A stretch of DNA of 47,322 nucleotides from Psammoneis japonica. Its lineage: Eukaryota. A program made the translations under genes and the position numbers. The stretch lies in the NCBI GenBank assembly GCA_008632985.1, contig QPGO01000164.1, forward strand, positions 124,001-171,322, read 5' to 3'. Of the stretch, positions 4,831 through 47,320 are shown piece by piece. The notes below the pieces were generated by a model. It was not told the origin of the DNA. It did no database searches and saw only the letters and a program-made list of their open reading frames with translations. Within the stretch, counting starts at the first letter, position 1, and each line of letters opens with the position of its first letter.

Positions 4831-4835
4831 GCGTC

Positions 4836-5406
4836 ATGAACTTCTGCCATGCGTTCAGCACACCGCACTCGAACATGTCGCACAGTTCGTCATTGGGCAA
4901 TGGTGCCGGTGTTTCTCCATCCTCCGTCACGGGTGGAAACTGAGAGACACAGCCGTTAATTTCAACAGCCCTCGTGACGCAGTCACGAGGAGAAACCTCT
5001 GCGGGCTTGCGCATGAAGTGTCGCAGACAATGCTTCTGCAACAGTGCCGCCCCATGTGGGAAGATACTTTCCTTTAGCTTCGCGACGCATGCTGCATGCG
5101 CAGTGTTGGTTTGGGATGCCTGCTTGTCAGCGGCATTGTTAAATGACGTCAGAGCATCGCCCTGCAGTGGGTCACGCATGAGGGCAATTTCGCTGGCCCG
5201 GTCGTGATGTTTTGTCCTTCGTGCACGCGATCCACGTTGCGTAGAAAGATCAGGAGTGTCTCGCATGTAGCCGTGGAAAGGTGCGGAATGCCCATCTCGT
5301 GCGTTGGACTGTCCGGATCAGTGGGGTTGTTGCGTAGCTTGAACGTCTGGTGCTCGCCCTGCTGCAGCTCTTTCTTCTCCGGCCGTGCGACAATCCGCTT
5401 CTTCAT
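4836..5406 (-). pseudogene. Gypsy gag fragment (frameshifted)
   Basis: FKLRNNPTDPDSPTHEM...GQNITTGPAK...LQGDALTSF...RHFMRKP...LPNDELCDMFECGV resembles diatom Gypsy gag. Confidence 0.75.
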
Positions 5407-9009: not shown

Positions 9010-9181
9010 CCCCTTCTTGCCCAGCAAGTCAGTGCAATCCAAAATGTCTCATCTAGAGTGCGGAATTGCTCAAGATTTTCTCAATGGTGTGCATTGCAAA
9101 TCATCTCCAGGAGCACACAGGCATGGCCCCAATGCAGGCGACAAGGGTCAAAACCAATTTGAACATGGAGAATCTGTGAAG

Positions 9182-11010
9182 CCAAGCGCACTTTCTTTGA
9201 ACAATTGATGGGCCCCATTTGTTGTGTTCATCCTTGGTGATCCACCTGCTGTCCTCAAAGTGGTCTGCATTGGAAAGGAGGATTGAGCCCCCAATCCACG
9301 CCAAATGCTTTTGCTCAGGAGGAGCAGTTGCACAGACTTTCACACTTTCTGGAGCAAGGGCCTCAATTTGTTCACTCGGCCTTTCTTCAATGCCTTCAAA
9401 CATGGTGTTTCCGCCAGCCAACACAATGTTGCCATGCACATCCTTCCAAATGTCAGAATCACACTTCACAATCAAATCATGCACCAATCTGTGAATCCCG
9501 CATTGCTCTGAACCTGTCAAATTGGGTTTGAACATAATTTCCAGTGCACGGAATCGTTCGTTGCCGACAGCAATGACTTGACCATCAGGCAGTTCACAGT
9601 TCTGATCTTGTTTGGATGCCTTTGTCATGTCTGCCTCAAAGTCTAGAGCCACGAAGCAGCATTTCTCCTTGATGTCACGGACAATCTCTTTTTCGGCCAA
9701 AGTTGTGAATGAGTGACCGCGCTCTGTCAGGATCTTTCGCAGACAGTCTGTGATGTCTTGTCCTGCAAGATCTGGCCTCAGCGCAGCATGAGGAAGCACA
9801 CAACCCTCACAAATTGGAACAACGTGGGCAACACCGCAGCCAGAATCGAGAACAATCCCGGTGGTTCTTCCAGTCACATGCAGACTGAGCACGGCTGTGA
9901 TTGACACATGGAGTTGTGGGGTGTTGAAGGTTTCAAACACGACTTGTGTCATCTTCTCCCTGTTTGCCTTCGGATTGAGAGGGGCTTCGGCAAGCAACAT
10001 GGGGTGTTCTTCAGGAGCTGCGTGGAGTTCGTTGCAGAACGTGTGGTGCCACATTTTTTTCCACATCGTCCCAATTGGTCACAATGCCATGTTCGACAGG
10101 ATGTTTGATGGTCAGCATGCCACGTTTTGCCTCGGCTTCATCACCAACAGACGCACTCCAGGTCCAGGGTGGGACCTCGTGCTGCTGAACTGTGACATTG
10201 ATGGTTTTTTTCATCGCGTCATGTGTCACGCACGCAGATTTCTACATGATTTTTGTGACATTTTGCATCATTTTACGGCGCCAATGGGAATCTTTCAAAA
10301 ATGATGTAAAAAGCACAAAACAATTGTGGATGCCTGCAGAATCCACATGTTTTTGTGCTGAAACTGACATGTTCACACGATTTGTGCAAAAACAGACTTG
10401 ACTGTTGTTGGGTCAGGCGTTTTTTTGCAAGTGCATTGAAGAAAAATGCACCTGATCAGAAAACAGTCAAGTCCATTTTTCGCAAAGTTAAAAATCACCA
10501 AGGACAGACAGACAGACTTTTCAATGATTGTCTTGGCACTGTTCCACACATTTCCACGCAAATGACTCTACAGCGTGAAAGATTGCCATTGCTTGTTGAG
10601 CGATCTGTCCAAAAACTTTTGACATTTTTTGTTGCAGCGCAGTTCTGTGATGTCTTAAGAATCTCGTGAGGCAGGCGCATTTGCAAAAACGTCGAGTGAC
10701 AAGAGGCACAATTGCAGCACAAACTTGGCCGTTTGTTTGATGTTGAAGACAAACATGTCCATCATCAGTTGGATTCTTGCACTGCGGAGCTGGCATGTAA
10801 AATTCTGCGGGCCCAATGTCACACGGAGTCCCGCCTGGGGCTGGAACGCGTCAACACAAGCACCCTTTTGTCCCACCCTCACAATCACGCCTGGGTGTTT
10901 GAGATGGCCTGCAATTGATGGAAAGACTGCTCTGGGAGCATCGTCACCAGCAAAGCCGGCCTTTGTGGAGCCTGAACCATTGTCCATCACAATTGCAGAT
11001 GTGTCACCAA
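9182..11010 (-). pseudogene. ACT: Divergent actin pseudogene, interrupted by a MITE, frameshifted, with Tyr replaced by Cys/His
   Basis: [27 protein letters not shown] at 10.9-11.0 kb; [82 protein letters not shown] at 10150-10852; frameshift near 10060; the codon at the expected stop position is TGG (9182-9184). Confidence 0.93.
10150..10852. mobile_element. MITE/non-autonomous TIR element (703 bp, hypermutated copy) inserted in actin
   Basis: Imperfect TIRs gacgcactccaggtccagggtgggac / gtcccgcctggggctggaacgcgtc; 4-bp TSD AACA at 10146-10149 and 10853-10856; inverted homologue of 32428-32817. Confidence 0.9.
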
Positions 11011-11218
11011 GCTTGCATCCCTCCCCAGTCTTGATTCTGTTGCGCACCTTTTCAAGAATGTTGGGAGAGCGATGGGTCGGCCATCGGCCAACTGGAGACC
11101 AGCCGCCCCATCTCGAGCTCACTTGTGCACCTGAAGGCCTGGGCACTTGAGGTTGGCATCTTGGAAGCATTCCCTTCCATTGTCTTCTTGAATGCCACCT
11201 TCCGGTGGTGTCGCAGCA

Positions 11219-15171: not shown

Positions 15172-18100
15172 TGACAGAAATTGAGGGCAAATGGCAAGAA
15201 TTCAAACAACAACTCCTTGCTGCTGTCTAAACAGCAGATGAGTCTCCGCTCAGAGACCGTTGCAGGAGCCGAAGGACGTGCAAGTCGGCACAATCGGGCT
15301 GCTGTTGTCATTCTTGTGAGCCTTGTGGCTCAAAAGCAAACCACATCGCGCCGAACGCGCGGAACTAAAGCACACAAAACTGTGCGCGGCAAACTGAACA
15401 GCACGCGACATTTCGCGCGCACCTGAATCCTGTTCAAATCCTGTCACTCCCCAGTTTGCTTGAGGAGCCACAGAAACAGACTCGACTTTGGATGGAATGA
15501 AGTTCCAGAACATGAGGGGGCGGAGAAGTCCCAGATTTGGGAGTGACCCCAATGCTTGCTGAGAATGTCAGCAGGGTTGCGGGAGCCTTCGATGAAGTGG
15601 AGCTCAAGGCAACCAGAGGCAATCGCCTCACGCACACGGTGGAACGATGGTGCGGCACGTCGCTTGTGTAACTTGGAGTGCGGGATGGTGGCACTGTCTA
15701 CAACCGACTTGTTGTCACGAACATGCAACTGACATTGCGGATCGGGACGCCAAGGTGGCGCAGGGTGATGCGCAGGTCGACAATCTGTTCGACACAAGTC
15801 CTTGCGGCAACAAATTCAGACCCGCAGGTCGCAGTCTCCACAGTGGCTTGCTTCTTGGAGAACCAATCAGCCGGGAATTTGTTGAGGAAGTGGAGCATTC
15901 CCATGACAGAGCGTCCGGTGAGCATGCAATGGTGCAAGTTTGCATCGACGCAGTGGGTTGCAGTGGCGAACTTGCCAAGGGGTGGTGGAGCGTCCTTCAG
16001 GATCATCTCCTCTGCTTCGCCACACACGGAATGCATCCATTCACAGGCCGGAGCAGAAAAGATCCGAATGGTCGGGCTCTTCCGTGCGAACGCGGAGAGC
16101 GCCGTGTCGCATCTTGGAGAGGTGCCCACAGACGCGTTTGGCACGATCCAAGTGGCCTTGACGGGGTGCAGCTCGGAAGCTGGAGAGTGACATGACGGCC
16201 GTGTTTGATGTCAATTCGACCAAGGGACACTGCCCATTGGAGTGAACCAACAAGAGACTGGAACTTGTGAATGCCATCGGGCTCCAGCAGTTCGGAAGTG
16301 TCCAGTTCGGGGTGGTCACCCTTCTCCAGAGGTGACAGGGCGTTGGTGGTGGGTTTCTCCCCAAACGGTCGGGTGCAGCTGTCGACCATGCGCTCGATGT
16401 ACTTGCGCGGAGACAGGCACAAGGTGCCGTCGGGATCCCGGGAAAAGTCGCAACCCAGATGGAACTCAATGGGTCCCGCACCCTTGAGCTTGAACTTGTG
16501 CTTTTCCGTGAGAGTGTCGACGAAAGATTGAGGGTCCTTCACAGCAACGGCGAGGTCATCCACATAAACGGCAATGCATTCACAGTGGTCGCCGTTCCTG
16601 CGCATCCAAATGTTGGGTTCGGCGCGGCAGGGGAAGAAGCCTTCAGCTCGCAGGCAGTCGGCGAAGCGCTCGTGCCAGCGGAGACGGAGCTGCGCAGTCC
16701 ATGCAGGGCCTTGTGGATGACAAGGATGTGTCCTTCGAGTTTGCCAAATTCGGGTCCGGCTGCAATGTAGAGCTTCTCCTTGGTGGTGGCTTCAAGGTGG
16801 GCATTGCCAATGTCGGTGGCCCATGTCTCCAACTCGTTGAGTTCGGCCAGGAAAATCATCAGCCGAAGGCCACGGAGGGAGACTGCTCCGGAGCAGACAC
16901 TGTCAATGGGTATGTCCATGAGGTGCCCATCAGCTACGAGTCGTGCCTTGTGGCGACCGTCGTGTTTCACGTCGTGCACTGGGTGCACTCGGATCTTCTT
17001 GTGTCCGGCAGGAGGAGTGGAAGACTTGGAGGGCCCGCAGTCATGGAAGACTTCGTATTCCTCGAGTTGGTCCATCTCAAGATTAGTTGCATTTCCCCAT
17101 TTGCAGTTGCCGTTGCGTTCGTCCAGTGACATGGCGTGTTTGCAGTTCCGGGGAACTTCGCATCCGCACTTGCAGCGAGGTGCAGTGCGGAAGGAGCAAA
17201 GCTTGGCTTGGTTGGCCATGCGGAACAGCTTCTTCTGGCGCCTCGCGATGGTGCGGAACCGCTTCCAGCCATCAGTGTCGAGAAGTCCGTTCTCTCGTGC
17301 ACAGATGGCGCAGGTGACGGGGTCATCCTTGGCGATGATGGCAAGAGGCTCGGACGTGATCTCCCCACTTTCCCATTCAAGCACAATGTTGTAGCTTGAG
17401 CCTTTCCAGGTTGGGTCATGAGGCTTCAGAGGTCCTTCGTGTGACACGATGCGTCGAAATTTCCAAACAGCAGTGTCTTCGTCTTCTTGCTCAATGTGAT
17501 TCATGATGTCGTTGCAGGCAAGGACTTCCTCGCATTCATCATTGTTGACAGAGCAGATGAACTTAGTGAGCTCGGGATTGCCGTTCACTTTCCATTCGTG
17601 GTCTTCGACGACGATGCGAGCTCTGTGGCGTTGTCCGTCCTCTTGTGGCTGCATGAGGAAGGTGCGTCTGATGATGTCTTGCGGATCGAAAACTGGCATC
17701 TTGGGTGTCCTGATCTCCCCATCAGGAGAATCGACGGGGTTGTCGTCATGGCGACATTTGATGATGGGTTCAGGTGGCTCCCCATCAGGAGGATCAAGAC
17801 GCAGGTTTCAAACGGCAGGATCGGTGGTGGCGGATCGTACGTTGGACCGGCAGAGGATCTTCTGAGTCTCGTCAGAGAGAATCTTGAAGGTCATCTGGTG
17901 GCCGACGTGCTCAGCAATGCCAACAAAGCGTCCACGCAACTCACGGGATTCGGACGGCCAATCGGAGTCATCGAGGTGGAAGCACACGGGTTCCCACCAG
18001 TGAAAGCGAAGCAATGGGCTGATGTCGGGGTGGAGCCAGTGAGAGTCTCGAGGGGCGTGCGCCAGTGGAGACGTGGGGACGCTGTGTGGTTGAGCACAAA

Positions 18101-21100
18101 GCACACGTGCATGAGCACCAGCAGCCATGTGTGGGCAGGCGAACCGAAACGATCCATGACAGTGTTTGCCATGCGCTTCACGGTCTGGTGTCGACGCTCG
18201 GCAAAGTTTTGGTGTTGCTGGTGAGGCTCACTTTGCCAGCTGGAGATGAAGAGGGCTCGTAGAATCCCGAGCACCTTGTTGCTGATCTCAACTTGAGCAT
18301 GGTCGCCAATGAGTTTGGATGGGGCACCACGCTCACGGATCTGATCCTCGAGTGTGTTGACAAACTCCTTGTCCATCTTGGTGCCATGGACGTCAGTGAC
18401 GGTGGACTCGGTGCCAACAAACAGTTGGGCGCTGGTGCAACCAGAGTCGACGGCCGGGGTGTCGGCACAAACGGTGTCAGTGGCGACAGGCTCGTTGCGG
18501 CGGTGCACATTAAGGGCGGGGTTGGGTGATTTGCAGGCCTTGCGAAGGTGTGTGCCGGCGGGCATGCGGGCGCACTGCGTGGTGCAGTCAAAAGTACGAC
18601 GGACCGCATCGGCAGGTAGGAAGCCAAAGCAAGGCCGAAGAGACTCGAAGGGGGGGTCCTTGGGCTGTACAGTGCGCTCCGGAGGTGGAACGTCATCGCC
18701 CTGGGGGCCAATCGCATGCAGATGACACTCGCAGAACACGTCGTCGTTCGGAATGAGGTGATCATCGAGGGCGGACGCGTCATCAGCAGACAAGGAAGCG
18801 GACATGATGGTCTCGTTGACAACAACACAATGACGGCAGCAAACAGGTTGGCAGTGGGATCGTCCTGCAGGTCAGAGATCGCGTTGCACCACTGGTCGTC
18901 GTCAGTGACAGAGTGATCGAGGACGGAAGGATCCCATGTGTCATCACCGGGTGAGGATGACATGGGGCAGGGTGTCCCATTCGGCATCAGTGCAAGGTCG
19001 CATGGCAACACAAGGCAGGCCGCCCTTGATGTCAATGGGGATGACATGGCCATCAGGAGTGGCAATGCGTTGCAAGCCGTTGGGCACCTTGACAGAGCGA
19101 TCGTTGACATCCTGTTTGTGCCACTCGAGCTGGCCGCAGGAATGGATGGTCTTGCCCTTTCCCGTGTGTGCGCACTGATGGAGGATGGCGATGACGGGAC
19201 CACGCTGGGTCTCAATGACGGCACCCGTGGTGACAACAGGGATGTCCACCAATTGATGGTCGTCAATGCCCTGAACGTCGACTTGGCGAGAGGTGCGTGC
19301 AATGACGCAAACGTCGTCGCCAGCAATGCCGCCGTTGGCCCCACGATCGACTAGAGCACCAGTGCGTGTGGAGCGATGAGCAGAGGCAGAGCAAATGACA
19401 TTGTGGTCATTGACGCGACGGCAAGTGCGGCCGTCAAGTTCCATGTCATCGGCAGAAGCTGGCGGGGTAGAGGGAGTGGCGGATGGCCCCGGTCGACTGG
19501 TGTTGGGGGCTTGGTTAGGAGACAACAGATGGTGCAGATCACCGGGTGGCAGTGGCCTGCGCTTGGTGAGGTGCGCCAGGATGGGATTGTCCGAAGTGGC
19601 ATCCACACTTGGAGCGGAGTCACCAGAGTCAGCAGGAGTCGTGTTGGACATGTCAAGGCGTTGGTCGTGAAGGTTGGCCGTAATGGACTCATGGCAGTTG
19701 CTGGCTCACGGATTGCGGGGAGGCGGACGAGAATGCCCAAGGATGATCGCCTTGGAGGAATGGGGCAACGAATCCCAAATCCGTTGGTGGTCGGGAGGGA
19801 GACGTTTCCATTGGTCACCGGTGAGGCTGGGACCACGGGTGTGGGCAGCATTGGCCTGAAGGACGTCAATGTCGCTGTCAATGTCGCAGAACACATCGTC
19901 AGACGGTTCCTCGGAGTGGACATCGTGTGTGCATGTGGCACGTCGGGGAGCTCGAGGTGTCGTCTTGGGTTGAAACGCACTGTCGCATTGAGCCGCCGCA
20001 GAGAGGAGCAAGCCACAGCATTGATCGCATGTGAGGCTCTTGCCACTCTGCGTACGATGCTGATCAGCTTGGTTCTTGACAGCACGGAGTTCCTCGACAG
20101 GGTGTGCGGCATTCTCAAGCATGATGCACTTTTGTCCTTCAGAGAAGTGGTCACTGGCCGGGATGAGTGCCTCGTGCTTGCGCAACTGATCTTGCCAATG
20201 AAGGATGAACCCGTGGGTCGGACCTTTCCAAGTGCCATCACCAAGACGTGCGGTGGCAAGGTGCGTGAGCAAGGTGGAGGACTCGACAGATGCGTGGGTG
20301 GAGGCGAGCGCATGCTCAGACAAGGCGTGGCAGACGGTCTGGGCGTCAGAAGACCCCACATTTTCGCGAATGAGAGCCTTGCCCTTGTCGGTGAGAAGAA
20401 CGCGTTCGAAGACGGCAAACATGTGCTTTTGCTGTTCAGCAAAGAGCAGTTTGTCTTCGGGGCTGGTCGGTTTGTACGACGAGTCTAGAATGCACTCGAC
20501 GTCTTGGGCACGGGCTTGTGCCACAAGTGAGGTGTGCCAAGTGTGCCACTGCTTGTCAGATTTGAGAGCCGTGAAAGCGGTGGGGTCACACTTGATGCCT
20601 CGCTTGAAGTCTCGCACCAGGTCGCGTGCCTTGGTCGGGTTGGTGACATGCGGAGGTGCGAGGGGTGAGCTGCCGATGGACACAGGGACACAGAAGACAT
20701 GCAGTCGGGGCTCTGAGGCGGCAGGCAAGGAACTCGTCATGCGTGAACAACGAGGAGTCATTGGCAACGTCAAGACCTTCGTGTGCTTTGACAACGCACA
20801 GACTGGTTGGAGCTGCTAACATGTTCTTATAACCGTGGGGCAAAGGGATCACATTGGCGCCGTTGTCGCACTCAAGCGAGTGATTTGGGACGGCATGAAC
20901 GTGAACAGTTCTTGATGCGAGTCCGTGCCATCTTGGGTCAAAGCCAAACGAAGAGGGCTCCCAGCACCTTGGGCAAGCACGGTTCCAACAACGTGCTCGA
21001 AACCATCGGTTTGTTGCTGACGAGTGAGAACCATGGCAGACAAAAGTGGTGTCAGGACAAGCAATTCTTGTTGGGAAGCGAAGGCAGACTTGAAACTTGG

Positions 21101-22220
21101 GTGAGAATGGACTTGACTTGAAACAGACTTGACTTGAAATCTTGAACTGCCTTGAAATCAGAAGTCGCCGGGCTGTGCCATCCCATTCGTTGTCAAGTGC
21201 TAAACTTCCCATCCGGTCCGTAGAGTTGTGCCGGCACGTCCGAACCCGCAGCCAGCGGCGCTTTGGGTTGCTTGCGAGCGGAGCAGCGGTTGCAAACCCC
21301 TGCAGGCAAGCTGACCAGAGGTGGACAAGACCCCCGAACCGTTCTTGTTTTACATTGGTTGGATTTCCCGATCAGGCTGGCCAGTTGACGCAGGCGTTGG
21401 GCACTGTGGACGAACGAACAAACGCGGGAAAGCACCCTCGCCCCAACACAGGCTGCAATCACGGCTGCTTGCTCTCACAGTTGTCGCACCAGTGGTCCGG
21501 GGTGGATCAGGTGCAATGGACTCGGTGTGCTTGTAGAGTGGCAGCAAAACCGCAGTCCGAAGAGTGGGTGCAAGTTCTTGGCCGTGAAGATGTGCACATG
21601 CACATGTCTTCAGCGATGAAGGTCCTTGAACATGCAGGGTTCTTGACCGTTAACCGATGAATGGGTGTGTCAAGGGATGAGGATCAAGGGTGGACTTGGA
21701 TGTGACCGTTGATGCATGTCTTCAGCGATCAAAGGCAGTGTGATCAATCCAGACATCCAGCGGCAAGGAGACTTGACGGTGACGTTAAATTCCTGCCAAT
21801 GCCTGGCATTGAACATGCGCAGACTTGCCGATGCATGTAGAATGTGTGCGGAGGTCCACGCAGAATTGAAGTGGCGTCGTCGGTAAATCAACGACGACGA
21901 TGGCGGTTGCTCAATGGGTTGACAATGAGCAAGACTGTCAATCTGACAGAAATTGAAGGCAAACGGCAAGAACTCAAACAATGACTCCTTGCTGCTGTCT
22001 AAATGGCAGATGAGTCTCCGCTCAGAGACCGTCACAGGAGCCGAAAGACGTGCAAGTCGGTGCAATCGGGCCACTGTTGTCATTCTTGTGAGCCTTGTGG
22101 CTCAAAAGCAAACCACATCGTGCGCAAACGCGCGGAGCTGAAGCACACAAAACTGTGCGCGGGTAAACTAAACAGCGCGCGACATTTCACGCGCACCCAA
22201 ATCCTGTTCAGATCCTGTCA
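15172..22220 (-). mobile_element. Full-length Ty1/Copia LTR retrotransposon (CoDi-like), inactivated
   Basis: LTRs 15172-15446 and 21944-22220 (TGACAG...CTGTCA); 5-bp TSD GTTGT at 15167-15171 and 22221-22225; PPT aaactggggag; domain order gag-PR-IN-RT-RH. Confidence 0.96.
15460..21034 (-). pseudogene. Copia gag-pol polyprotein pseudogene (multiple frameshifts, Tyr->Cys/His)
   Basis: gag start MVLTRQQQ (ATG 21034); protease ALVDRGANGG; integrase SEPHQQHQNFAERR; RT KARLVADGH, DIGNAHLEA, VYVDD; RNaseH WFSKKQATVETATCGSEF, NPADILSKHWG. Confidence 0.93.
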
Positions 22221-22957
22221 GTTGTCATCCAGATGAACAAACACATTCATTTTCCTGCAAAAAATGTCTCTCAAAAATCAACGCTGCTTCTTTTGCAATG
22301 TGCCGGCATCTTGTGTTTGCACCCCGCGATTTGCGCATCCGTTGCCATCAAAAAACTTTGTTTTTCATTTTGACATGGACTCTGAGCAACAGAAAAAAAT
22401 TGACACAGCAAAATTTGAGACACCTCTGTCTTTTGCTTGCTGTTGTCAATGGAGTGCACACTTGTGTCAGTGAACCCACACACCCTTTTTTGAACAAAAA
22501 CACAAAACAATGCTCTCACAAATTCAAGCAACCGGCACTGTGGTGTGAACTTGGGGTGCCGATCTGCGCAAACAACGAAAAAGAAAATGGCTGCAAAACG
22601 AGCCAGGAGGTGCAGGCCTTTTGCAACATCTTTTAGTTTGCGACTTACCACTTTGGCACATAACCCACTCTTTGGGCCCTGATGGGTAGACAGCATGCCA
22701 AAGCGACATGTCAATCGCAGTTGCAGAAATGCCTTCTGTAGCATGCACGGTGAAAAACATCTCTTTTTAAAGAAGTTTTGTCAAAACGTATAAGTGTGCG
22801 GTATAAAATGCGTCTTTTTCAACCATTTTTGTCAAAAGCTAAAAGTACAGCATGCCCGGACGTCAACGCGCGCAAGATCTGCCCAGGTCTCCATTCCATC
22901 GGTTCCATCAAGGCAGAAGAAGGCAGAAAACGCCAACAAAACACACGAGCAACAAGC

Positions 22958-28549: not shown

Positions 28550-29554
28550 CTATTGCTCTTCAAAAGGATTGATTTCATCCTCAGCATTATCATGAGCCAA
28601 CACAAATGCATCAAGGAGAGCCGACTGCATGCTAGCAGAATCATACACCGCCGGCGTAAATGTATGCGTGACTTCTCCGACAATTATTGTTTCATCCTCT
28701 TCAAAAAGCGTACTCTTCTTTGCTTGCGCTCGGAGATGGACACCGAGAGGGCCAATGGCAATAACGGAAGCCTTTTCAACTACAAGACTCTCTTGCATCC
28801 GCCCCGGATTTAGCTGTTCTGCGGCAAGGGCCACGATTTCAGGCTCAAACGCCTCGTCATTCAAAAGCTCCATCAGGTACTCGCAATCCTCATCCAAAAA
28901 GGCCGGCTGTTTCCACCATGGTGGCAAATACATGGGTTTTTCAGCTGCAATATCTTTCCATTCATGTGGCATATCATCAGCATAGGCGGCAGAAATTCCA
29001 GTGTTTCTCAGTTTCGACAATGCTTGTTTGTCCAACTCGTCAATATTTTCCAAGAAACAATCTTCCATTCCTGCGTAATCACTACAATTCTTCGGGAAAT
29101 CCACCGGAACTCGGACAGCCACAAGCGATACCCCAGCACGTACCGTGGCTTGAATGTCCACGTGATTTTCATCCAAACTCACCACCTCGACATGAACAAT
29201 TTCCTTGAGGTCTAGGCCTTGGTCTTCCGGACAGAACGCCGTAGCTATTCTCGCCAAAGCAGCAACCTTTTCCGACTCTAGCATTTCTTTGATATGAGTT
29301 AATGCTGAGCCTTCTGCTGTAGTATCATCATAGCTCTCACCTGTAGACGAGTTATAATCTTCAGCATCGACGTAGGTTTTAGAGTCATAATACACAAGAG
29401 CAGGTAGTTGAAACGAAGTTCGACGACGGTGGTGAACAACATCAACGGCCAGACTAATAGCACCACCTGATGAGACAAAAGCTGATGTCCTTTCGAGCAA
29501 AGAGACAGTGCTTATGAAGGCAAACTTTAGTAGTACCCTTTGTGAAAATGGCAT
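28550..29554 (-). CDS. Nuclear-encoded plastid-targeted protein of unknown function (possibly DUF2470-like), 334 aa
   Basis: Intact ORF with normal Tyr; signal peptide followed by TSAF (heterokont ASAF-type cleavage motif) and a basic transit-like segment; acidic mature region. Confidence 0.8.
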   Translation of the reverse strand: MPFSQRVLLKFAFISTVSLLERTSAFVSSGGAISLAVDVVHHRRRTSFQLPALVYYDSKTYVDAEDYNSSTGESYDDTTAEGSALTHIKEMLESEKVAALARIATAFCPEDQGLDLKEIVHVEVVSLDENHVDIQATVRAGVSLVAVRVPVDFPKNCSDYAGMEDCFLENIDELDKQALSKLRNTGISAAYADDMPHEWKDIAAEKPMYLPPWWKQPAFLDEDCEYLMELLNDEAFEPEIVALAAEQLNPGRMQESLVVEKASVIAIGPLGVHLRAQAKKSTLFEEDETIIVGEVTHTFTPAVYDSASMQSALLDAFVLAHDNAEDEINPFEEQ

Positions 29555-30703
29555 GATGGAAAAGAGGAGGAGAGAACAGGGATCTTTGTGGGGTGTCCGA
29601 GCAATAAAGACGGCTTCGCTGTTCGTGTTTCATCTGGCGATGTGCCATCGCCGAATCATGAATCGCATCATCGCATCATCATCGCTGAAACCGCGCGCGT
29701 ATGCTGTGAGTCCCGCGAGCAAGCACGGAGGTTGACAGAAACAATAAAGACACGACCAGCAACGGAACAGCGATCTCCATTCACGTTGTACTGTCGTGCT
29801 AAATGGTTGTTCGCCGTCGTGCTCCCACATTGTGCTTCCGACCGTGACCCGTGCCACGAATCATTGTGTCAGGGAGAAGCAAGATGCAAGCCCAAGAGTC
29901 AGAGCTTGAATCCACGTTGCACCGAATCACGCAAGAGGAGGTTGGAAAAAAGCCTCTAAAAACCTCGAGAGCAAGTTTGAAGACCTTGAGAGCAAGCTTC
30001 TTGGGACAATTGCAGACAAAAATGCATCCGCGTTTGTGGCAAAGATCAAACAAGTCCTTGTGGGGGCAGCAAAAACAATGGCGACATTGACGATGATGGT
30101 GATGATGATGGGAACAGAGCAAACAATGGCCATGGTCTTGTTGTGGCCGCTGGCACAAATGTGCCCACCTTGTGTCTGCAGTGCACGTCCTTGTGGAACT
30201 CATCAAGAACCTCCAAACATCAAATGACGAAGCAGTGAAGCATGCCCGTCATGCTGCACATGCAGCTTCAGGGCCCCTGCCACCTGTGTTTGAACTGCGC
30301 TGGGGAGCAGACGAAAAATGCCAAGATCCTGCTGGCAACATGTTGCCCTTTTGAATGACAAACTTGTTCTTGCCAGAAGACCATGTCTCAAGTGGCAAGA
30401 ATGATGTTGCTTGTGCCCGACCACACAGCGCCACGAAGAAAAATCTTAATTCTGGATTTTTTCCCATGAGAAACCATCGCTCGAAAGGTGCAGAAGTGTG
30501 GCTGGAAGACTGGTGATTGGACACGGAAGCATTTACACAAAAGGGCAGGTTGTTGAAATGCAGGAAACACGATTGACAGTGGCTGCTCATTCTGCACTTG
30601 GGAGCAGTGGTTGTCCCCTGTTGGACAACGATCGCAATCTGCTCGGCCTTGTTCATGGTGTGTCAAAGCACTGAGGCAAGTGTCACTCAACCGCTGCTTC
30701 AGG

Positions 30704-31367
30704 AGTGGATGCGGAAAAATCTCCCATCTTCCAAGCCATCACCAAATGCTGGAACTGAAAGCACCAGCTCTGTCTGCATGCAGTGCATTTTTGTTGTTTT
30801 CATTTCTGCATGCTTTGTCGGTTGCTTGGCTCTTCATTGTCATGCACTCTGGCAAAGCACTGATCCAAGAAGGAGCCAGACCAACCAATCAACAGAGGTC
30901 TGGTTTGTGTTGACGTGATGAGTTGGTGCATTGGTTGCTCATTCTGCTGCTGCTGCTCTGGTCAGGTGGAGGTTCAAAGGTGCACAATCATGAGTCGTGA
31001 TCACCCAATTCCCATGCATTTGTTGAGTTGGGCTTCAACATGGGTGCCATCACTTGCGCCCTTGCAATCTGGTTGCAATTTCAAAATTGGTTGCACAGCA
31101 AAACAAAGATGAAAACAAAATCGGTCATTTTGGTCATTGCACATGAACAAATCCAGCTGCACGATGGCTCAGCCACTCACAGTGCTGGCATGACAACAAC
31201 ACAACAACCCCAAAGACACTCTGAAGCCTGTTGCAACAAGAAGCCCCCCCCCCCACGAATTTCTGCCACATTTTGGCACATCCCCCCCTTCATGCAAAAT
31301 TTCCACAGATGTGACAAATGGAAATGTTGCCGCACTCCCAATCTTTTAAAAATTGTTGTCACTTTTC
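30704..31367 (-). pseudogene. Inverted, internally deleted, hypermutated duplicate of the upstream region and 5' part of the 33525-35447 gene
   Basis: Reverse complement of 30744-31367 aligns to 32912-33618; 30704-30743 aligns to 34500-34539. Confidence 0.88.
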
Positions 31368-31592
31368 CACCATCAATCCTTTTCAAGAAATGTGACATGC
31401 TGCACCTCAACACAACATTGCTGCATCTCATCACAACTTTGCAACTCTTGCTCTCATTGTCACAGATCTGCTTTGTTGTCACTTTTCTGTTGTCAACCCT
31501 TTTCAAGAAGCATGGCATGCTGCGCCTCAGCATGACATTGCTGCATCTCATCACAACTTTGCAACTCTTGCTCTCATTGTTGCAGCTCTGCT
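31353..31592. repeat. 120-bp tandem duplication
   Basis: Period 120 (tttcaagaa at 31381 and 31501; gcaactcttgctctcattgt at 31441 and 31561); many differences are CA vs TG. Confidence 0.88.
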
Positions 31593-32427
31593 CTTTGTCA
31601 AAGTGGGTGTGGGTGCAAAACTGGCACCATCTCCATCTTCCTCAAAGTCAAACATGTTTCAACAGAACACACCAACTTGCTGGAATGGGTTTGTGAGTCA
31701 TGCTTGTCAACAGGAAGAAGCAATGTTCAGATGCACATGTTGTCTGTTCAATGAGAGCAAAGAAATGCAAAAGAATGTGCCAGCTTGAGTTGACTTTGGG
31801 AAAAAAATGTGTGCACCTGGCATGAGGGGACCGAGCTGCAAGAAGGGTCATGATGCGACATGCCACAGGAGCGCAAATGTCTCCAATTGTCCCCACCAGA
31901 TGAGCTGACCACATGGGTTCTGAAAGAAGTGCAACCCAATTTCCTTCTGGGGGTGCTGCCAAATGAATGCAAAAACAATTTGCTCAGGAGGCGGGTCTGT
32001 TGCTGGAAAATGCTGCTGAGTCACTCAGCTTCAGACTGTTTGTGGGAAAGCATCCCCAGTGTGGATCCTTTGCATTGCTTGGCTTCCACACCAGATGCTG
32101 GATCACAAACACTGCCTTTGCTGGACCCAACAAATCTCTTGCTCATTGGTCAAACCGATGCAACAGCGTGCTTGACCAACAATGTTGGAGTTGCTGATCC
32201 ACCAGATTTGGAGTCTTTTGGCCTGGACTTTGAGTCAACAGCAGAAGACATTTTGTGCAAAGAAACTTTGAAGCAAGGAATGACTCTCCACAAACTCCCA
32301 TCATTGCCCTTCCACTCAACAATGGCTGCAACATCGACTCCATGCTTGGCTCACATGTGTCAACCGGTTTCCACTGGAGTGCCAGAATTTGCCCCCCCCT
32401 GCTTTTCTGACACCAACATCTGCTGCT

Positions 32428-32817
32428 GACGCGTTCCAGCCGTAGGTGGGACTCCGTGTGACATTGGGCCCGTAGAATTCTACGTGCGAGCTCCGTAGTA
32501 CGAGAATTTAATTAATGGATATATTTATCTTCAACATCAAATAAACGGCCAAGTTTGTGGTACAATTATGCCTCTCACCACTCGACTTTTTTGCAAATGC
32601 GCCTGCCCTACGCGATTCTTAAGACATTATAGAATCGCGCTGTAACAAAAAATGTCAAAAGTTGTTGGACGGATCGCTCAATAAGTGTACCGTAAAATGA
32701 CACAAAATATCGAAAAAATCACGTAGAAATCTACGTGCGCGACATACGACGTGATTCAAAAAACTATCGATGTCACAGTTCAGTAGTACGAGGTCCCACC
32801 TAGACCTGGAACACGTC
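32428..32817. mobile_element. MITE (390 bp), TA-rich and largely unmutated copy of the family inserted in actin
   Basis: TIRs gacgcgttccagccgtaggtgggac / gtcccacctagacctggaacacgtc; 4-bp TSD TGCT at 32424-32427 and 32818-32821. Confidence 0.92.
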
Positions 32818-33524
32818 TGCTCATCAACTCAGAAGACAAAAGACAAGAGAGCAAGAGTGCTGCTGTGAGGGAAGCAAACATCATGCAGAAAACAGTCTCC
32901 GTGGGTGCATCGAAAAGCGACAGCAATTTTTAAAAGATCAGCACAGCAACATTTCCATTTGTCACATCTGCAGAAATTTTGCATGAAGGGGGGGGGGGGG
33001 GGGGCATGTCCCATGTGCCAAAATGTGGCTGAAATTTGTGTGGGGGAGCTTGGGTGAATGCAGCCCCCCCTGCAAAATCTTGGTGGGTCATCCTCCAACG
33101 GCGCTCACTTGTTGCAAGCAGTTGCAACAGGCCTTAGAGTGTCTGTGGGATCATCACATCGTCATTGCTAGCACTGTGAGTGGCTGAGCCATTGTGCAGC
33201 TGGATTTATTCGCATGCAATGACCGAAATGACCGATTTTGTTTTTCATCTTTGTTTTACTGTACGGCCAATTTTGAAATTACGACCGAGTGATGGCACCC
33301 ATGTTGAAGCCCGACTCAACAAACGCGCGGGATTGGGTGATCACGACTCGCCGTGATAACGCACCTTTGAACCTCTACCTACTTAGAGAACTAGAGAGTA
33401 GAGTAGCAGTAGTAGAAAGAGCGACTAATACACCAACACATCACGTCAACACAAACCAGACCTCTATTGATTAGTCAGTCTGGTTCCTCCTTCTTAGACC
33501 AGTGCTTTGCCAGAGTGCGTGACA

Positions 33525-35447
33525 ATGAAGAACCAAGCCGCCGACAAAGAATGCAAAAACAAAAACGACAAAGACGCATCGCGTGCGGATAGAACTGGTG
33601 CTTCCAGTTCCAGCATTTCCTACGCAGCGTACGCCGCTTCATTTGATGACAAGCAGCCGCAACAACGTGACGATGTAAAAGGACTACCTTCGCGTCACCA
33701 AAATGAATTTCAAAAGAAAGACCACAAGGCCGAATCTCTTGGAGAATCTGTTCTTGATAACAGCGTCATTTCCAACAAAGATCCCGGGTCTCGGTATCGA
33801 TTAAGCCAAGCACAACAAGGGCCAAAAACGGAAGCTTCAGGTGACGAAGTTGCTCTTTCTCATTTTGAGCCTACTGATACGCCGCATGATGCTGGTGTTG
33901 TTCCTGGGGCAGTTCGCGTGGCTGGTCCTGGAGTTGACTTGACCAGTGACCGTGAAGAAGATGATACCTTTGACATTGAGATGGAACAACAAGCAAATCC
34001 TACTATTGCTGATACTACTTCGTCTCAAGCACCGCAGCATCAAGGCGAAACTCTCCTGCAGGCTGAACTTGTGACACCCTCAAGCAATGATGGAAAAGAA
34101 ATGGCGTCCGCGTCGGCTATTCCTGTCCATCCTTGGAAAACCCGTTTGTCTGTTGCTGTCCTTGTCTGTATTTTAGTGGCTTTGTCAGTTGGCATCGCTG
34201 TTCCGCTTACAAAAAGGTCGTCTTCGCCTTCACCGCCAGCAACCTTGGCGCCGTCGACTTCGTTTCCAAGCAGTAGCCCTACTACAACCCCGGCGCCGAC
34301 TTCGCAAGAACAGATTACGGTCGTTGTTGGGCTCGACTCGAAGCCTCGCGAAACGGGATGGAAACTGGACTGCGACGGAACCAATAGGGCGAACTTTCCG
34401 ATTGGAGTGTATGATGAGAGGAGTGCTAATCGCAATTTGACTGCTCAGTTTCCTGTTACGGTTGGACAAGAATGTACATTTGTGTTGGAGGATGCAGGTG
34501 GCGACGGCTTAGAAGACGGGAGATTTTTCCGGATCCACTATGGACAAGTGTATTCAAGTAACGGTACTCTTTTGGCCAACGGGGACGGCAATTTCACGTC
34601 TAAAACGCAGGTCGATTTTACCATGGTAGCTCCACTGACGCAGGCTCCAACTACCTTTCCGTCAGCATCACCAACGACCACTTTCCGACCTTCTTTGGCT
34701 CCGTCAGTATCTCCGACAATATCGTTTGTGCCATCGATTTTTCCAACGAGAGATCCAACATCGCCTCCGACTGCGGCGCCAACGACTCGTCCAACTCCAG
34801 CGCCAACTCTTTTGCCAACTCAACTGCCTACTTCGGTGCCAACATTCGCCTTGACTTCACGCCCGACCCCATTTGGTACGATTATCGGTCCTCCTCCGCC
34901 ACCCGGCCCTCCGTCTCCGTCACCGCGACCCACGAGTCTTGTTGCTACTTCTCAACCAACGCCAGCTCCAACAAGCTTTCCAACAAAAGAGCCTGAAGGA
35001 TTCAAAACGATTCCTCCCACCCCATATCCAATGACACAGCATCCGACTCGGTTTCCAACTCGAGCTCCTACGCTGTCTCCAACGGTTTCGCCTACTCCAA
35101 GCATTCCTGTCAAACTCACGGTAGTGATTCAGCTGGATGAGTATCCATCGGAAACAGGGTGGAGCATGGTTTGTGACGACACGGTGTTGATAAGGGTGAA
35201 TCCCTCAACCTATGCCCGAGCAAATGAACGCGTGACAGAGGTCTTGACAACCAGAGCCGGAGCATCGTGCATGTTTGAAATTTCAGATTCATTTGGTGAT
35301 GGAATTTGTTGCAAGTTTGAAACGAGAGGCTTTTATCAATTGTTTTTTGGAGAGGACACCAGCGATAGGGCCAATCTGATTACGTCAGGTGACGAATTTG
35401 GAGCATCAGAAGCATTTCCATTTCAGGTGAGAGAGCCTGTCGGATGA
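33525..35447 (+). CDS. Single-pass membrane protein with PGAVRV motif, Pro/Thr/Ser-rich stalks and two repeats of a diatom-type extracellular domain, 640 aa
   Basis: Intact ORF; TM LSVAVLVCILVALSVGIAVPL; repeats VVVGLDSKPRETGW..DAGGDGL and VVIQLDEYPSETGW..DSFGDGICC; probable ATG at 33525. Confidence 0.88.
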   Translation: MKNQAADKECKNKNDKDASRADRTGASSSSISYAAYAASFDDKQPQQRDDVKGLPSRHQNEFQKKDHKAESLGESVLDNSVISNKDPGSRYRLSQAQQGPKTEASGDEVALSHFEPTDTPHDAGVVPGAVRVAGPGVDLTSDREEDDTFDIEMEQQANPTIADTTSSQAPQHQGETLLQAELVTPSSNDGKEMASASAIPVHPWKTRLSVAVLVCILVALSVGIAVPLTKRSSSPSPPATLAPSTSFPSSSPTTTPAPTSQEQITVVVGLDSKPRETGWKLDCDGTNRANFPIGVYDERSANRNLTAQFPVTVGQECTFVLEDAGGDGLEDGRFFRIHYGQVYSSNGTLLANGDGNFTSKTQVDFTMVAPLTQAPTTFPSASPTTTFRPSLAPSVSPTISFVPSIFPTRDPTSPPTAAPTTRPTPAPTLLPTQLPTSVPTFALTSRPTPFGTIIGPPPPPGPPSPSPRPTSLVATSQPTPAPTSFPTKEPEGFKTIPPTPYPMTQHPTRFPTRAPTLSPTVSPTPSIPVKLTVVIQLDEYPSETGWSMVCDDTVLIRVNPSTYARANERVTEVLTTRAGASCMFEISDSFGDGICCKFETRGFYQLFFGEDTSDRANLITSGDEFGASEAFPFQVREPVG

Positions 35448-38389
35448 GGTTAATACTAATCAGTCGTCGGCCAGCAGCGTTACAAGCAAGGCATGCGCAG
35501 CTGGTTCATCAGGTTCATACTGTTGCATGTCATTCATACTTACTATAATGCATAAGATGGAAATTGTTGTGAACCCCATCGTAAGTCCTGTGCCAAACCT
35601 GTCATCATTCTGTTTCATTCCTTGAGGCTCGAAGTTGGTTCTTCCCTTGGCGGAGGAGTGTTCGGCACCGTCGGCTTCGTACTTTTTTCTTGCTGATGCG
35701 ACAAGGGGGCCGCCATTGCCGTTGTTCGCAAAAATCTGCTGCTTGGCTATGATGTGTCTAAAATCAAATGTAAGATGACCACAAGTGCTTCACAATGCTA
35801 AGACAACGCACTTATGTTCCCACACATTACTCCCGTTCTCCACAGAAGTTTTTCTTATCGCCACAAGGTGACAACAATTGAGCCGTCGTGGACGCAGAAT
35901 GTCATTGTGGCACCGAAAGAAAAAATGAAGGATTCCATTTGCCCTTTCGAGCTCTGACAAAGATCGAGATTGGCGGCCCAGGTGGACAGCTAAAAAAATC
36001 TATGTAAAAAGACACAGATTTGTGCGTTTGTGCGTTTGTGTTTTCCGGAGCGGCCCACTTGCGACAGGCCTGTGTGACGCGCGCGCCGCAACATCAAGAG
36101 CTTTGCGTCGGTTGCTCTGTCAACATCTTCTGTTAAAGGGCAGCAGACTTCTTTCTGCCCTCCAAGCAGGAAGCAAAAAGAAATGGAAAGACACGCAAAA
36201 TGGTGACCACGGGCGTGCCCATCACAATTTCTTGGAGTGGAAAGAGAGTCAGGCCAATCCACAGGCTGGTCGGGAATGCCGTGAATCATGCAACAAACCG
36301 AGTCCATGGTTCTGGACAAGCCAAATGTGTGGTGTCTGCTTGACTCATCCACAGAAGCCCACTTGTCCAACATTCTCTTGCATTTTTCAATGTTTTCAAT
36401 GACTTGAGATGCACTCAGCACATTTGCAACCTCGGCTGCTTCCTTGTCAGACAATGTTTGGTTTGTGCATCAAACCAAGGCAAAGCCAATGTGACAAGAC
36501 TTCTCAAGTCTGGGTTGTGATCCACCAAGTGCTCTTGTCAAAACTGTCAAGATGAAAAACACAATCCCTTGATTGGCTCACTGTGAAACAACCCAGCATT
36601 GCAGGCATGGGCATCACCACTGAGCCACATGATGTGGTGTCGTTGTTGCTGACCACCAAAGAACTGTTCCAACTGGTCATGCTGTTGTTGGACTTGGCAA
36701 CGCAAGTGCGCCATGCCTTGACAAAAGCCACACAAATTTGGCATTGATTTGTGATGCTTTTGTTTGTGACTCCAACAATGCATCATCGTGTTCCATCCAA
36801 CTTTCAGTGGCCGTCATGACAAGAGAAGAGCAACCGTGTTCTCTTGAGAGCTCATCATGGCCTGCAAATGTGCTGTGCACAACAATCATTTCAGCTGGCT
36901 GTGAGAGAGAGCCAACCATGAGATTGTGTGGCTCTTGCTGTCATGTCATTGGACAGTGTCAGCAGACATTAGAAAGACCATCCACCACAATCGAAAAGAT
37001 CTTGTTCAGTGCAGGTTCAGCGCAAATCCTGCTTTCTTTGCACCTCAAGGGCCTTGAGCGTGCACAGGACTGCACCTCTGATGTGTCCTGCCCCCCTGGC
37101 TCCTTGCGACAGCACTTTTGCATGTGGTTCCCTCTGACACTGACAAAACTGCTGGGGCACTTGTGACCATCCTCCGATGGCTGCAAAGGTGCACGTGAGT
37201 GTGGCTTTTCCCACTGGTGTGCGTTGCCAACGGACGGAATCTGCACCTCTCGGGACTGTTTTCCTCGCGAATTGTGTTTGCTTCATAGAAGTGGCAGGAC
37301 TGCGGCGAGCGCCGGCTGCATGAAGTCAGGTGGGACTCATTCAGTCACGCATGCGCACACACCCTCCGAACGCCACTCACCATGAGAATCGGAACGGCAT
37401 TTCATGCCATTGCCAAACCTTTTCAACAACAGCAGTGCTTTAGAACAGTTTCTGCCATCACATGGAAACCATTTTCATCACTTGTTTGAAGGCAATTGCT
37501 CAATCGAAAGGTCAAAAAATGGATTTTGTAATTGCATCACCATCCGCTGCTCTTTTTCGTGTGCTGTCGCAATGCAATCGTGTTGCGCTTTCGTGTCACT
37601 GACTCGTTCTTTTTGTTTGATGCACTCATTTCATGCGCTCATGTGGGGAGCATTTCGACCATGTTAAAAGCCCTGACGAGGAACAACGGCTCTCAGTTTC
37701 ATGTCGACATTTGAGCCATTTGTCTGTGGCCGACATTTCTGCATCAATCGAAATGGGGCTGTTGCGTGTCATGCACTGTCTTTTGGATCAAGCCAAGCAA
37801 CGGATGGTCGATTTCATTGATGATGTGGATTGTGGTGTGCGTCATTTGATGGCAGACAACGGCAAGTGTATGATTTGTGGAGCTCACAACTTGCTGCCGC
37901 GAAAAATGATGATGTTCACCTCGAATGCAAGCAACTGACGACACTTTCTTGCCATTTTGCATTTTTCTTACTCACTGTTGAAAGCTTTAGGTGCTTGTTG
38001 CTTCACTGCGGTTCTACACTGCATTTTTAGCCGTCAATGTCCAACCTGTCATCTCGACTTCTCATGGTAAAAATTGGGTTGGATGACATGAATCCAGGAG
38101 GAGGTTGGGGTCAGAAAATTCGCCGGCCGGTGGTTTTGCAATCTCTTGACGGCAAGTGGCACTTTTGTGATGTGAACTCTGCTTTTTTTGTTGAGACGTG
38201 TGCCAAAAATGTTCTTTGCTCATTGTCCAAAGCTGCCAACACATCCTGCTCGATCAGGGACCCTTCCTGATCGGCGGAACAGCGGTGGCACTGATGCTTG
38301 CGGAGAAACTTCTCCACAAGCTGGTGGACACGGACAAGGAGTCGTTGCCGAGTTCATCTGAAATTGCGCAACAAGCCATCATGTGTCCA

Positions 38390-45499: not shown

Positions 45500-47320
45500 T
45501 CAGGAATTATCATTGCGCAACTTCTCCACCACATAATCAGCACCGTCGTTGTACATGATGACTACAAATCCAGCAACAGGCCTCTTAATTGCCACGGCCT
45601 CCATTGCATGACGGGTTTCAACATATCCTGAAAGCTGCTCGTGAGCTTTGGTGATAAAAGCTGCTGTCGGAGCTTCCTGAACTTGTTTCAGTTCCAGTAT
45701 CACCACACTTGTTGTCGAACTAAACGTGACATCTGTGCGTTTTCCGGTCAGTGGCAAAATATCCTCTTGAGTCGTCTGCGCCCTGCCTCTTAGAATGTCA
45801 TGGGCCTCCGTGATAACGTGCGACTGGAACTGAAGCTCCAAGATGTGATTATGTATGTCAGAGGAAGCCCAAGATATCAACCTCGCCATGTTATTTTTCG
45901 AAATTGAAGTCACAAAGTCCACCAGAATGTCTTCACCTTTGGCGTAGAGGTCTTCCGTGGTTGTGAGTGAGGTCAAAGTTTCAAGGGATGCTCGCAGCGT
46001 TCTCAGCAGCGGTTCGAGGAGGTTCTCACGGTAGAAATCAGAGGTGATGGCGAACGTTGGCTTCCTTTTCGAACTTGCTGATACCACTCCTAGGTGGACT
46101 AAAAGGGTTAGGTAGTCACCGATGTCGATGTCTTCCCGCAAGAGATGCTCCAAACTCAAGTCTCCATTTAGTTCGTAGCCTTTCACTTCACGCCTTTCGG
46201 CTAGTTCGTTTACCACGTGCCGGAGGTTCCGAGCATTTTGAAGGACATTAAACACGGAGGACGGGATCGGCTCCCAGCGAAAGCTTCCTGGTAAGGGAAC
46301 ACCATGCAAGAAGGCGGACCGATCAGAACGACTCTTGAGAAATCTGTTCATCAACGCATTGACCAACGCTGTGTGATACAGGGAGCTCCCGCCAGGAAAA
46401 CGAAGGTTGTTGAAATCGTATTTGATCTTTCGGAAGGCAAGCTCAAGCTCCCCTTCGTTGAAGGGAGCATGCGTGTGGATATTTTCAAGCATTCCACGAA
46501 CATCGGCGTCAGTCAATCCAACAGCATCGGCCATGAATTCCTCAAAAGTAAGCGAGACAAGCTCAAGGCCACTCATCTCTTTGATTCCGATGGGGGTTAT
46601 TCCGGTCAGCATTATTTTCGCGCAGTCCAAGTGCTCCAGGGCAGCCTTGACGGCCCTGAAAAAGGCAAAGTAAGACCCGAACACCGACTTGATCTTCTTT
46701 TCAACAGCTTCGTAGAGATTGCGGCCGTGATCAGGTATTAAGGGTAGCAGACCTTCTCGGACAGGTTGGTCGTATTCATCGACAAGAATCAGCAACCGCC
46801 CTTGCGAAAGCTGTACAGCGGTACTCAGATTATTCATCACCGTGCCAATTGGCTGATCGAGCATTTTGACGCCCATCGAAACACGCTCGTAGTTTTCATT
46901 GAGTTGCTTGTTTGTCAACAAGAGGAAAATCACTTTGTGTTTGATAGCACTTGCGGTTGCCTTGTCGATGCTTCTGCAGTTGTCTTCCCATGTAGCATTC
47001 TCATCGTCTTCAATGGAAACGACGCCAAAATCCAATCGCAGGACAAACCACTTATTCCGATCATCCTCGCCAGGCGAATATCGCAGATCTCCGTCGACAT
47101 TGGAAGTCTTATTCAACGAGAACAATTCGTCGGCAAGGGAGAAAAGCGTTGTCTTGCCCAGTTGCATCGGGCGAGTGAAGACTATCGCATTATCGTTGTG
47201 GTTGAAAAGCTTCTCCAGAAACAAACTGTTGTCGCGGTAGCCGCGGCCTTGACGATAGATCGCCGGAGCACCGTTCTGGTGTCGGCCAGGGAATCCGAAA
47301 CTGTCTTTCGTCCTTTTCGC
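45500..47320 (-). CDS. AAA-ATPase-like NTPase fused to a C-terminal PD-(D/E)XK nuclease; 5' end lies beyond the window
   Basis: Frame open to the window edge; Walker A TRPMQLGKTT, Walker B LILVDEYD, GITP, C-terminal GKRTDV..VILELKQ; normal TA and Tyr content. Confidence 0.85.
   Translation of the reverse strand, partial: AKRTKDSFGFPGRHQNGAPAIYRQGRGYRDNSLFLEKLFNHNDNAIVFTRPMQLGKTTLFSLADELFSLNKTSNVDGDLRYSPGEDDRNKWFVLRLDFGVVSIEDDENATWEDNCRSIDKATASAIKHKVIFLLLTNKQLNENYERVSMGVKMLDQPIGTVMNNLSTAVQLSQGRLLILVDEYDQPVREGLLPLIPDHGRNLYEAVEKKIKSVFGSYFAFFRAVKAALEHLDCAKIMLTGITPIGIKEMSGLELVSLTFEEFMADAVGLTDADVRGMLENIHTHAPFNEGELELAFRKIKYDFNNLRFPGGSSLYHTALVNALMNRFLKSRSDRSAFLHGVPLPGSFRWEPIPSSVFNVLQNARNLRHVVNELAERREVKGYELNGDLSLEHLLREDIDIGDYLTLLVHLGVVSASSKRKPTFAITSDFYRENLLEPLLRTLRASLETLTSLTTTEDLYAKGEDILVDFVTSISKNNMARLISWASSDIHNHILELQFQSHVITEAHDILRGRAQTTQEDILPLTGKRTDVTFSSTTSVVILELKQVQEAPTAAFITKAHEQLSGYVETRHAMEAVAIKRPVAGFVVIMYNDGADYVVEKLRNDNS

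Follow-up and report, generated by a model that had tools for sequence, protein, structure and literature searches.

A stretch of 47,322 nucleotides of the diatom Psammoneis japonica (contig QPGO01000164.1, positions 124,001 to 171,322, assembly GCA_008632985.1; hereafter the window) contains two inverted copies of the upstream region and beginning of a host gene. One of them has lost its TpA dinucleotides (TA), whereas the other, continuous with the intact gene, has kept them. From the patterns left in the sequence we think it likely (with a probability of ca. 0.7) that a TpA-specific mutator, changing A:T to G:C, works in transposon-rich blocks of this genome that are probably CG-methylated and silent, and that its targets are set by position. 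Coordinates without a contig name are window positions; C162 is the contig of the window, and C126, C12, C2, etc. are other contigs of the same assembly (91.4 Mb in 597 contigs).

One arm erased and one arm spared

Comparison of the window with itself pairs 33121-33618 with 30744-31237 (79%) and 32912-33046 with 31248-31367 (77%), and a third, short piece at 34499-34539 matches 30704-30744. On the gene side the arm runs into an intact host open reading frame (ORF) of 640 amino acids (aa) at 33525-35447 on the plus strand, with 53 TA retained; the opposite arm will be called dead below. Of 19 gene-side TA in the arm alignment, 17 read CA (9) or TG (8) in the dead arm, one reads TT and one, inside a TTAA, is kept, and 20 of 27 gene-side CG read TG or CA. 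The original prediction, that the arms mirror each other and that the source retains the TA that the duplicate loses, is borne out by these counts. It had also described TA depletion in 32912-33190 but not beyond ca. 33200, and the observed/expected ratio (o/e) of TA is indeed 0.22 in 32912-33213 vs. 0.74 in 33214-33524 (0.00 in 30744-31135). This edge is real, and it lies where repeat relics give way to unique DNA, the last repeat base being 33213. The term “gene duplicate”, however, does not fit: the arm is made of ca. 310 bp of unique upstream DNA, 31 codons and a short internal piece joined over an 880-bp deletion, and the rest is repeat relics.

A second copy of the segment 29765-35702 (ca. 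6 kb) was found at C126:202360-208425, with unrelated flanks and with an intact paralogue of the 640-aa ORF (95%), so that four arms are available for polarising the changes. Where both gene-side arms have TA, the dead arm reads CA or TG at 10 of 11 sites in the window and at 9 of 11 in C126. Losses of CG amount to 16 and 12 of 21, respectively, and the opposite change, from CA/TG to TA, was seen at 0 of 54 sites in each dead arm. At 33399, 33404, and 33413 the dead arms disagree, CA standing in one and TG in the other, which implies that the ancestor had TA and that the two arms decayed independently. The two dead arms differ by 38 transitions and 7 transversions over 323 sites, the two live arms by 7 and 4 over 329 (p = 7e-7). 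When the segment was divided into seven zones, transversions were homogeneous (0.8-3.0%, p = 0.35), and transitions were 2.0-2.4% in the ORF, the 3' flank and the upstream region vs. 7.6-11.9% in the four zones made of repeats or dead DNA. Among these four is the repeat-derived stretch of the gene-side arm (28 transitions and 3 transversions over 367 sites), so this edge has been at work where it now lies ever since the duplication of the segment.

The example sites of the original prediction do differ in TA between the arms, but at two of them the polarity is not clean: CA stands at 33426 in the C126 gene-side arm, and TC at 33465 in both C126 arms. The state at 33465 is shared within loci (A/G in the window arms, C in both C126 arms), for which short gene conversion between arms or homoplasy are possible. 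Origin of the dead arm from a distant paralogue, which had been proposed as a refutation, is rejected, since its transversion distance to the neighbouring gene is the same as to the paralogue of that gene and the distances among all four arms are 1.2-2.5%. We also reject, by inference, that C126 is the other allele, because homology is confined to 29765-35702 between unrelated flanks and apparent haplotype pairs are 99.2-100% identical. Contigs of DNA reads from one sample are identical to 30536-30860, all bins of the dead arm are covered, and no variant falls in 30536-31367 among 40 of the 53 variants (the sample may be the source of the assembly). An assembly artefact is unlikely, as these contigs agree with that part of the arm and C126 shows the same pattern with different letters. 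In C126, near 204670-204735, the gene-side upstream region has an extra ca. 65 bp with about 15 TA, intact beside the erased block.

Mutation spectrum and genomic extent

The spectrum was taken from a family of miniature inverted-repeat transposable elements (MITEs), of which a young copy of 390 bp (32428-32817), with terminal inverted repeats and a 4-bp target duplication, interrupts the erased block; the C126 paralogue is free of it and a genome search gave 1525 candidates. We compared 87 MITE alignments, mostly selected by the search and not independent, with the majority of their 30 closest copies. Transition fractions were 0.32 at ATA, 0.29 at GTA, 0.11 at CTA, 0.10 at TTA and 0.04-0.07 at NCG, and <0.02 in all other contexts except GCC (0.03). 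The summed values of 0.21 at TpA, 0.053 at CpG and 0.008 elsewhere place the T to C change at TpA (A to G on the other strand) ca. 25 times above background and at ca. 4 times the CpG transition rate. Some copies have 26 changes at TpA and none at 269 other positions. Double changes from TA to CG are rare, so an intact TpA is required and mutation stops once it is gone. Seen from the adenine, TAT and TAC changed ca. 3 times faster than TAA and TAG, and this preference for a following pyrimidine (TAY over TAR, where R is a purine) is matched by the TA that remain in erased bins (36 ATA, 123 GTA, 177 CTA, and 297 TTA, vs. 1846, 1845, 1380, and 1450 in normal bins). Both strands are changed alike (274 TG vs. 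249 CA). Loss is graded among copies, from 1 to 26 of 30 TA, and the window MITE has kept 29 TA despite lying in an erased block, so the process is cumulative and either slow or episodic.

Outside this family we sampled three 200-kb stretches (600 kb, 1200 bins of 500 bp), in which 568 bins, or 47% of the DNA sampled, had a TA o/e <0.15 and are considered erased. The distribution on C2 is bimodal, with o/e values of 0.06 for TA, 0.38 for CG, and 1.74 for CA/TG in erased bins and 0.56, 0.98, and 1.2 in normal ones. Losses of TpA and CpG correlate (r = 0.47 over 400 bins). TpA loss nevertheless outruns CpG loss, as in a tandem upstream duplicate on C12 (339658-340101 and 340355-340798, 254 bp apart), where the gene-proximal copy is intact and the distal one, behind a 238-bp repeat, has lost 13 of 16 TA and kept 26 of 31 CG.

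The co-occurrence of both losses would be expected if TpA erasure were a by-product of CpG methylation, through error-prone repair with Pol eta-like A:T mutagenesis near deaminated 5-methylcytosine (5mC), and Pol eta does favour WA motifs. However, AA and TT contexts are near background (0.007 at TTT, 0.000 at CTT, 0.018 at ATT, and 0.017 at GTT), far from the value for ATA, and in the distal C12 copy the loss of TpA preceded that of CpG; we hold this origin to be very improbable.

Within the window, 9101-11170 is an actin pseudogene (PF00022), TA-erased and split by an old insertion of the MITE described above, and is thus another host gene copy erased within a block. A copia-type element with long terminal repeats (LTRs) at 15172-22224, with an 86% relative on C126, is almost devoid of TA and has kept most of its CpG, and a second element (3797-5933) is flanked by 435-bp direct repeats. 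At 45500-47167 there is an ORF of 555 aa with a bacterial-type AAA-ATPase-like domain (PF09820); it is TA-normal, which indicates that apparent foreign ancestry alone brings no erasure.

Position, homology and the limits of the block

To the left, the erased block is bounded by a host ORF of 334 aa (28550-29554, minus strand), for which our searches found neither a Pfam match nor a protein homologue; TA is retained as far as 29800, ca. 250 bp upstream of its start. Then comes repeat Y (29803-30704, TA o/e 0.05), with matches on C126, C270, C324, C240, and C287, and with a GSSGxP motif that we take to be trypsin-like, although there is no Pfam match. It adjoins the dead arm at the gene end, which is truncated; the components of this arm are all on the minus strand. 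The internal ORF piece (30704-30744), joined to codon 31 over the deletion, shows TA-type and CG-type changes alike, and C126 retains a longer version of it (34499-34597). The dead copy of unique host DNA, comprising the upstream region and the first 31 codons (30744-31135), has 0 TA in 392 bp and a CG o/e of 0.24. It is followed by a retroelement-end fragment (31145-31237, 0 TA) and by repeat X (31244-32912), TA-erased, interrupted by the MITE, ended at 32912 by the inversion junction and present at at least six other loci. On the gene side, all on the plus strand, the junction and a further copy of the end of repeat X in inverted orientation (32909-33079), hypermutated in place, start the arm. 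They are followed by a retroelement-end fragment (33076-33213) whose right end is the mutation boundary; its relatives occur as same-strand pairs spaced 5.8-7 kb apart, and the pair on C2 flanks a copia-type reverse transcriptase. Beyond the boundary, the spared upstream region (33214-33524; 17 TA and 16 CG in 311 bp), presumably the promoter and 5' untranslated region, leads to the 640-aa ORF. The product has one likely membrane helix and two related small domains around a Pro/Thr-rich linker, and its domain resembles unnamed clusters (commonest taxon Bacillariophyta) and, weakly, bacterial secreted proteins. Copies of repeat X elsewhere extend past the junction of the window, and it is the left arm that runs uninterrupted into X. 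Had the inversion arisen by fold-back or template switching, this arm, now dead, would be the parent, and the working gene would be the more recent of the two. The positional argument does not rest on which arm is the parent.

The original prediction had been framed by repeat-induced point mutation (RIP), which in ascomycetes changes C:G to T:A, makes TpA from CpA/TpG, and mutates both members of a pair (PMC2621366), acting between mating and meiosis. Like the change seen here, RIP consists of transitions that are dense, fall at particular dinucleotides and degrade both repeats and copies of genes. The inverted arms are linked, 1.9-2.6 kb apart, and diatoms carry DNMT4 enzymes related to RID (PMC9998398). 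We obtained 27 matches to C5-methyltransferases (PF00145), several with stops, at loci that include C43, C10, C59, C78, C27, C301, C297, C34, and C28. However, the frame does not hold, for the host is a diatom and not a fungus and the direction is reversed: A:T goes to G:C, TpA is destroyed and not created in either dead arm, and transition fractions at NCA in the MITE copies are 0.004-0.015. Besides, a single member was affected, twice, and no pairing rule is apparent. Nor does duplication raise divergence on the gene side, where transitions are 2.1% in the duplicated stretch of the arm vs. 2.2% in the unduplicated ORF. Linked duplicates were surveyed over ca. 690 kb (87 alignments of at least 300 bp between copies within 30 kb, those of the same family not being independent). 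In 33 of them both arms were TA-normal and in 28 both were erased, whereas 11 were one-sided and 15 intermediate. Among those normal in both are pairs of 1.2-3 kb at 95-97% identity on C12 and pairs at 85-91% on C5, so that these pairs have the homology that triggers RIP (ca. 400 bp at >80% identity) and are TA-normal all the same. We reject RIP on direction and symmetry, and homology pairing of the RID/DNMT4 type has scarcely any probability left.

A five-copy family of kinase-like genes on C12 provides an independent case. In one copy a mobile element of 428 bp (20 matches) with an 8-bp target duplication lies near the 3' end (C12:355974-357300). Considering only TA retained in all aligned sister copies, conversion reached 12 of 16 distal to the element, 3 of 4 up to 300 bp from it towards the gene and 1 of 26 deeper inside. 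TA loss is thus found on either side of the element and fades ca. 250 bp into the ORF, with converted sites inside the reading frame. Together with the C126 paralogue and the unmutated linked duplicates, this one-copy insertion supports the view, taken from sequence comparison, that linked homology is not the trigger and that targeting is positional. The original prediction had preferred position to homology pairing, and in this it stands; the unit would be a chromatin domain.

Could both arms have been mutated, the lineages with a damaged working gene or promoter then being lost to selection? The ORF is under purifying selection (pN/pS, the ratio of nonsynonymous to synonymous change, is 0.40) and promoter bases may be constrained; in addition, the spread into the window promoter was shorter than into the C12 gene end. 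Yet a silent change was open to 41 of the 53 TA of the ORF and all were kept, for which selection on the protein cannot account, and 44 TA steps are common to both paralogues and unchanged. The silent TA loss that had been named as a second refutation is therefore missing from the source gene. Moreover, with losses as graded as those of the MITE copies single silent changes should fix, and the C12 copy has converted sites within its frame. Survivorship appears to us quite improbable.

Less remote, but still unlikely, is that small RNAs or copy number guide the mutator by sequence to transposon families only, with passive leakage over a few hundred bases and no protection of genes. Both edges of the block are at repeat ends (29803 and 33213), and the 400 bp of host DNA in the dead arm lie within ca. 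250 bp of a repeat on either side. At least 4 TA in a 150-bp flank were found for 0 of 33 heavily mutated MITE alignments vs. 11 of 35 distinct lightly mutated copies, in what is a search-biased sample. On the other hand, the same repeat neighbours lie upstream of both arms and only one promoter was erased, and the sister C12 copies adjoin erased blocks and remain intact. This explanation departs from the best one only in how domains are seeded and limited.

Under positional targeting, we read the events as follows. An inverted duplication broke repeat X and gave two head-to-head copies of promoter and gene. One of them lost most of its coding sequence, survived as 400 bp of host DNA amid repeats and was then erased, independently in C162 and C126. 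The patterns show that mutation also strikes host-derived DNA within a few hundred bases of repeats, spares identical sequence where it runs on into an intact gene, and accumulates gradually after insertion. The target would be a silent chromatin state that is seeded by transposons, extends over a few hundred bases and is halted by active transcription units.

Candidate chemistry and known systems

That the region is silent chromatin we infer from the decay of CpG, as a fossil of 5mC, and from other diatoms, in which transposon islands are CG-methylated (by DNMT5) and weakly expressed within an unmethylated gene background (PMC9998398). The dead arms, with their CpG to TpG/CpA decay, conform to this, although methylation and 5mC deamination would account for the CpG part of the spectrum and not for the faster TpA part, which involves no 5mC chemistry. 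Adenine deamination and change of thymine on the opposite strand are indistinguishable in the sequence. Our best guess, slightly short of even odds, is adenine deamination by an enzyme of the ADAT2/3 type. Thymine oxidation seems to us a rather unlikely guess and error-prone repair a more unlikely one. An ADAT2-like gene at C26:119851 has the HAE and PCxxC motifs and a downstream CRND motif. Among at least 120 relatives listed for the TadA-like protein of this genome, the six with a named organism are all from diatoms. Early DNA editors derived from TadA prefer YAC (PMC7056309), which fits the TAY-favoured spectrum; they share with it the A to G change and a strict 5' pyrimidine, but they are engineered (or act on tRNA) and a 5' C is not accepted in the diatom spectrum; natural chromatin-targeted DNA activity of such an enzyme in a diatom would be hypothetical. 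Searching the genome for TET/JBP gave no match, but neither did the control of that search, so this negative is uninformative. At C79:88506 (minus strand) an open frame fuses a zinc deaminase domain to a DIOX_N/2OG-Fe(II) oxygenase, joining both candidate chemistries in what is probably a nucleobase salvage protein; its Atlas matches were below 0.8 and gave no lead. The ADAR/ADAT1-type deaminase family has two loci (C40:112674-113392 and C79:344558-345390), one of which is expected, for ADAT1.

Several observations weigh against a methylation-associated, deaminase-driven mutator targeted by position. A processive single-strand deaminase would leave local strand runs, and none were seen (131 of 243 concordant vs. 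129 expected, in 25 of 31 copies after dropping 6 with near-identical patterns), so processive single-strand mutagenesis was discarded; strand bias per copy showed slight overdispersion (1.68; p = 0.02 for this test, one of four). Most young MITE copies in erased blocks are still intact, so the process runs slowly or in episodes, or has ceased. CpG persists in some of the TA-erased bins, and methylation may not be required; the order of losses in the distal C12 copy likewise speaks against a strict need for it. No expansion of deaminases was seen among 9 matches in the genome. ADAT2 is a housekeeping gene whose form with Asn at that position is general in eukaryotes, and finding it is not specific evidence. 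Finally, spread into the spared promoter was at most ca. 50 bp (33262, in C126 only) vs. ca. 250 bp on C12, a result that selection on the promoter could produce as well.

The closest known system is that of the rhizarian alga Bigelowiella natans, in which integrated DNA of nucleocytoplasmic large DNA viruses (NCLDV) as well as of virophages undergoes hypermutation only at TpA, read as a defence against foreign DNA. The NCLDV insert is single-copy and silent, ADAT2 has been proposed, and the process is ongoing, at a rate raised ca. 1000-fold and switching between lines (Mettrop et al., bioRxiv 10.64898/2026.01.13.699255). The diatom data agree with the main text of this preprint in the restriction of A to G and T to C changes to TpA on both strands, in the regional windows poor in TpA and rich in CpA/TpG, in that the target need not be duplicated, and in the enrichment of TA-depleted sequences in transposon domains. 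The graded losses are compatible with an ongoing process, and the ADAT2-like gene is a weak common feature, unproven in Bigelowiella also. There are differences as well. The targets in Bigelowiella are of foreign origin, whereas here transposon relics are mutated and host-gene DNA beside them too, struck by position, with spread and boundary measured. Two regions at a TA o/e of 0.45 contrast with nearly half of the sampled DNA at 0.06. The main text mentions neither diatoms nor CpG, whose decay is coupled to TpA loss in our lineage. The preference for TAY over TAR is a further difference from that text, although context data in the supplements may bear on it. The evidence there is a direct mutation rate and here a fossil record. 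In the open-licence PMC and bioRxiv literature we found no description of the TpA signature in diatoms. The signature is known from one alga, and what is new here is its scale, its coupling to CpG decay, the positional mutation of host-gene DNA and the measured boundary and spread.

We suggest, tentatively, that diatoms possess a natural editor of DNA adenines. Silent chromatin would recruit it, new transposon insertions would be the points from which it spreads in cis, active genes would stop it, and it would need neither homology nor a foreign signature. It would have rewritten about half of this genome, killing redundant fragments of host genes together with transposons, and it would be, as in the distant rhizarian alga, an A-to-G counterpart of RIP and AID/APOBEC across the stramenopiles, alveolates and rhizarians (SAR).

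The published case leaves the targeting rule open. At the window locus and in the C12 family nature has run an experiment on it in replicate: identical host sequence is erased or spared by location, the boundary can be placed to the base, and the spread covers a few hundred bases. The rule is directly testable in a group with genetic tools. The ages of transposons and the fates of pseudogenes in such genomes need rereading, since LTR dating would give inflated values and stop codons are erased. The findings point to a possible natural A-to-G DNA editor.

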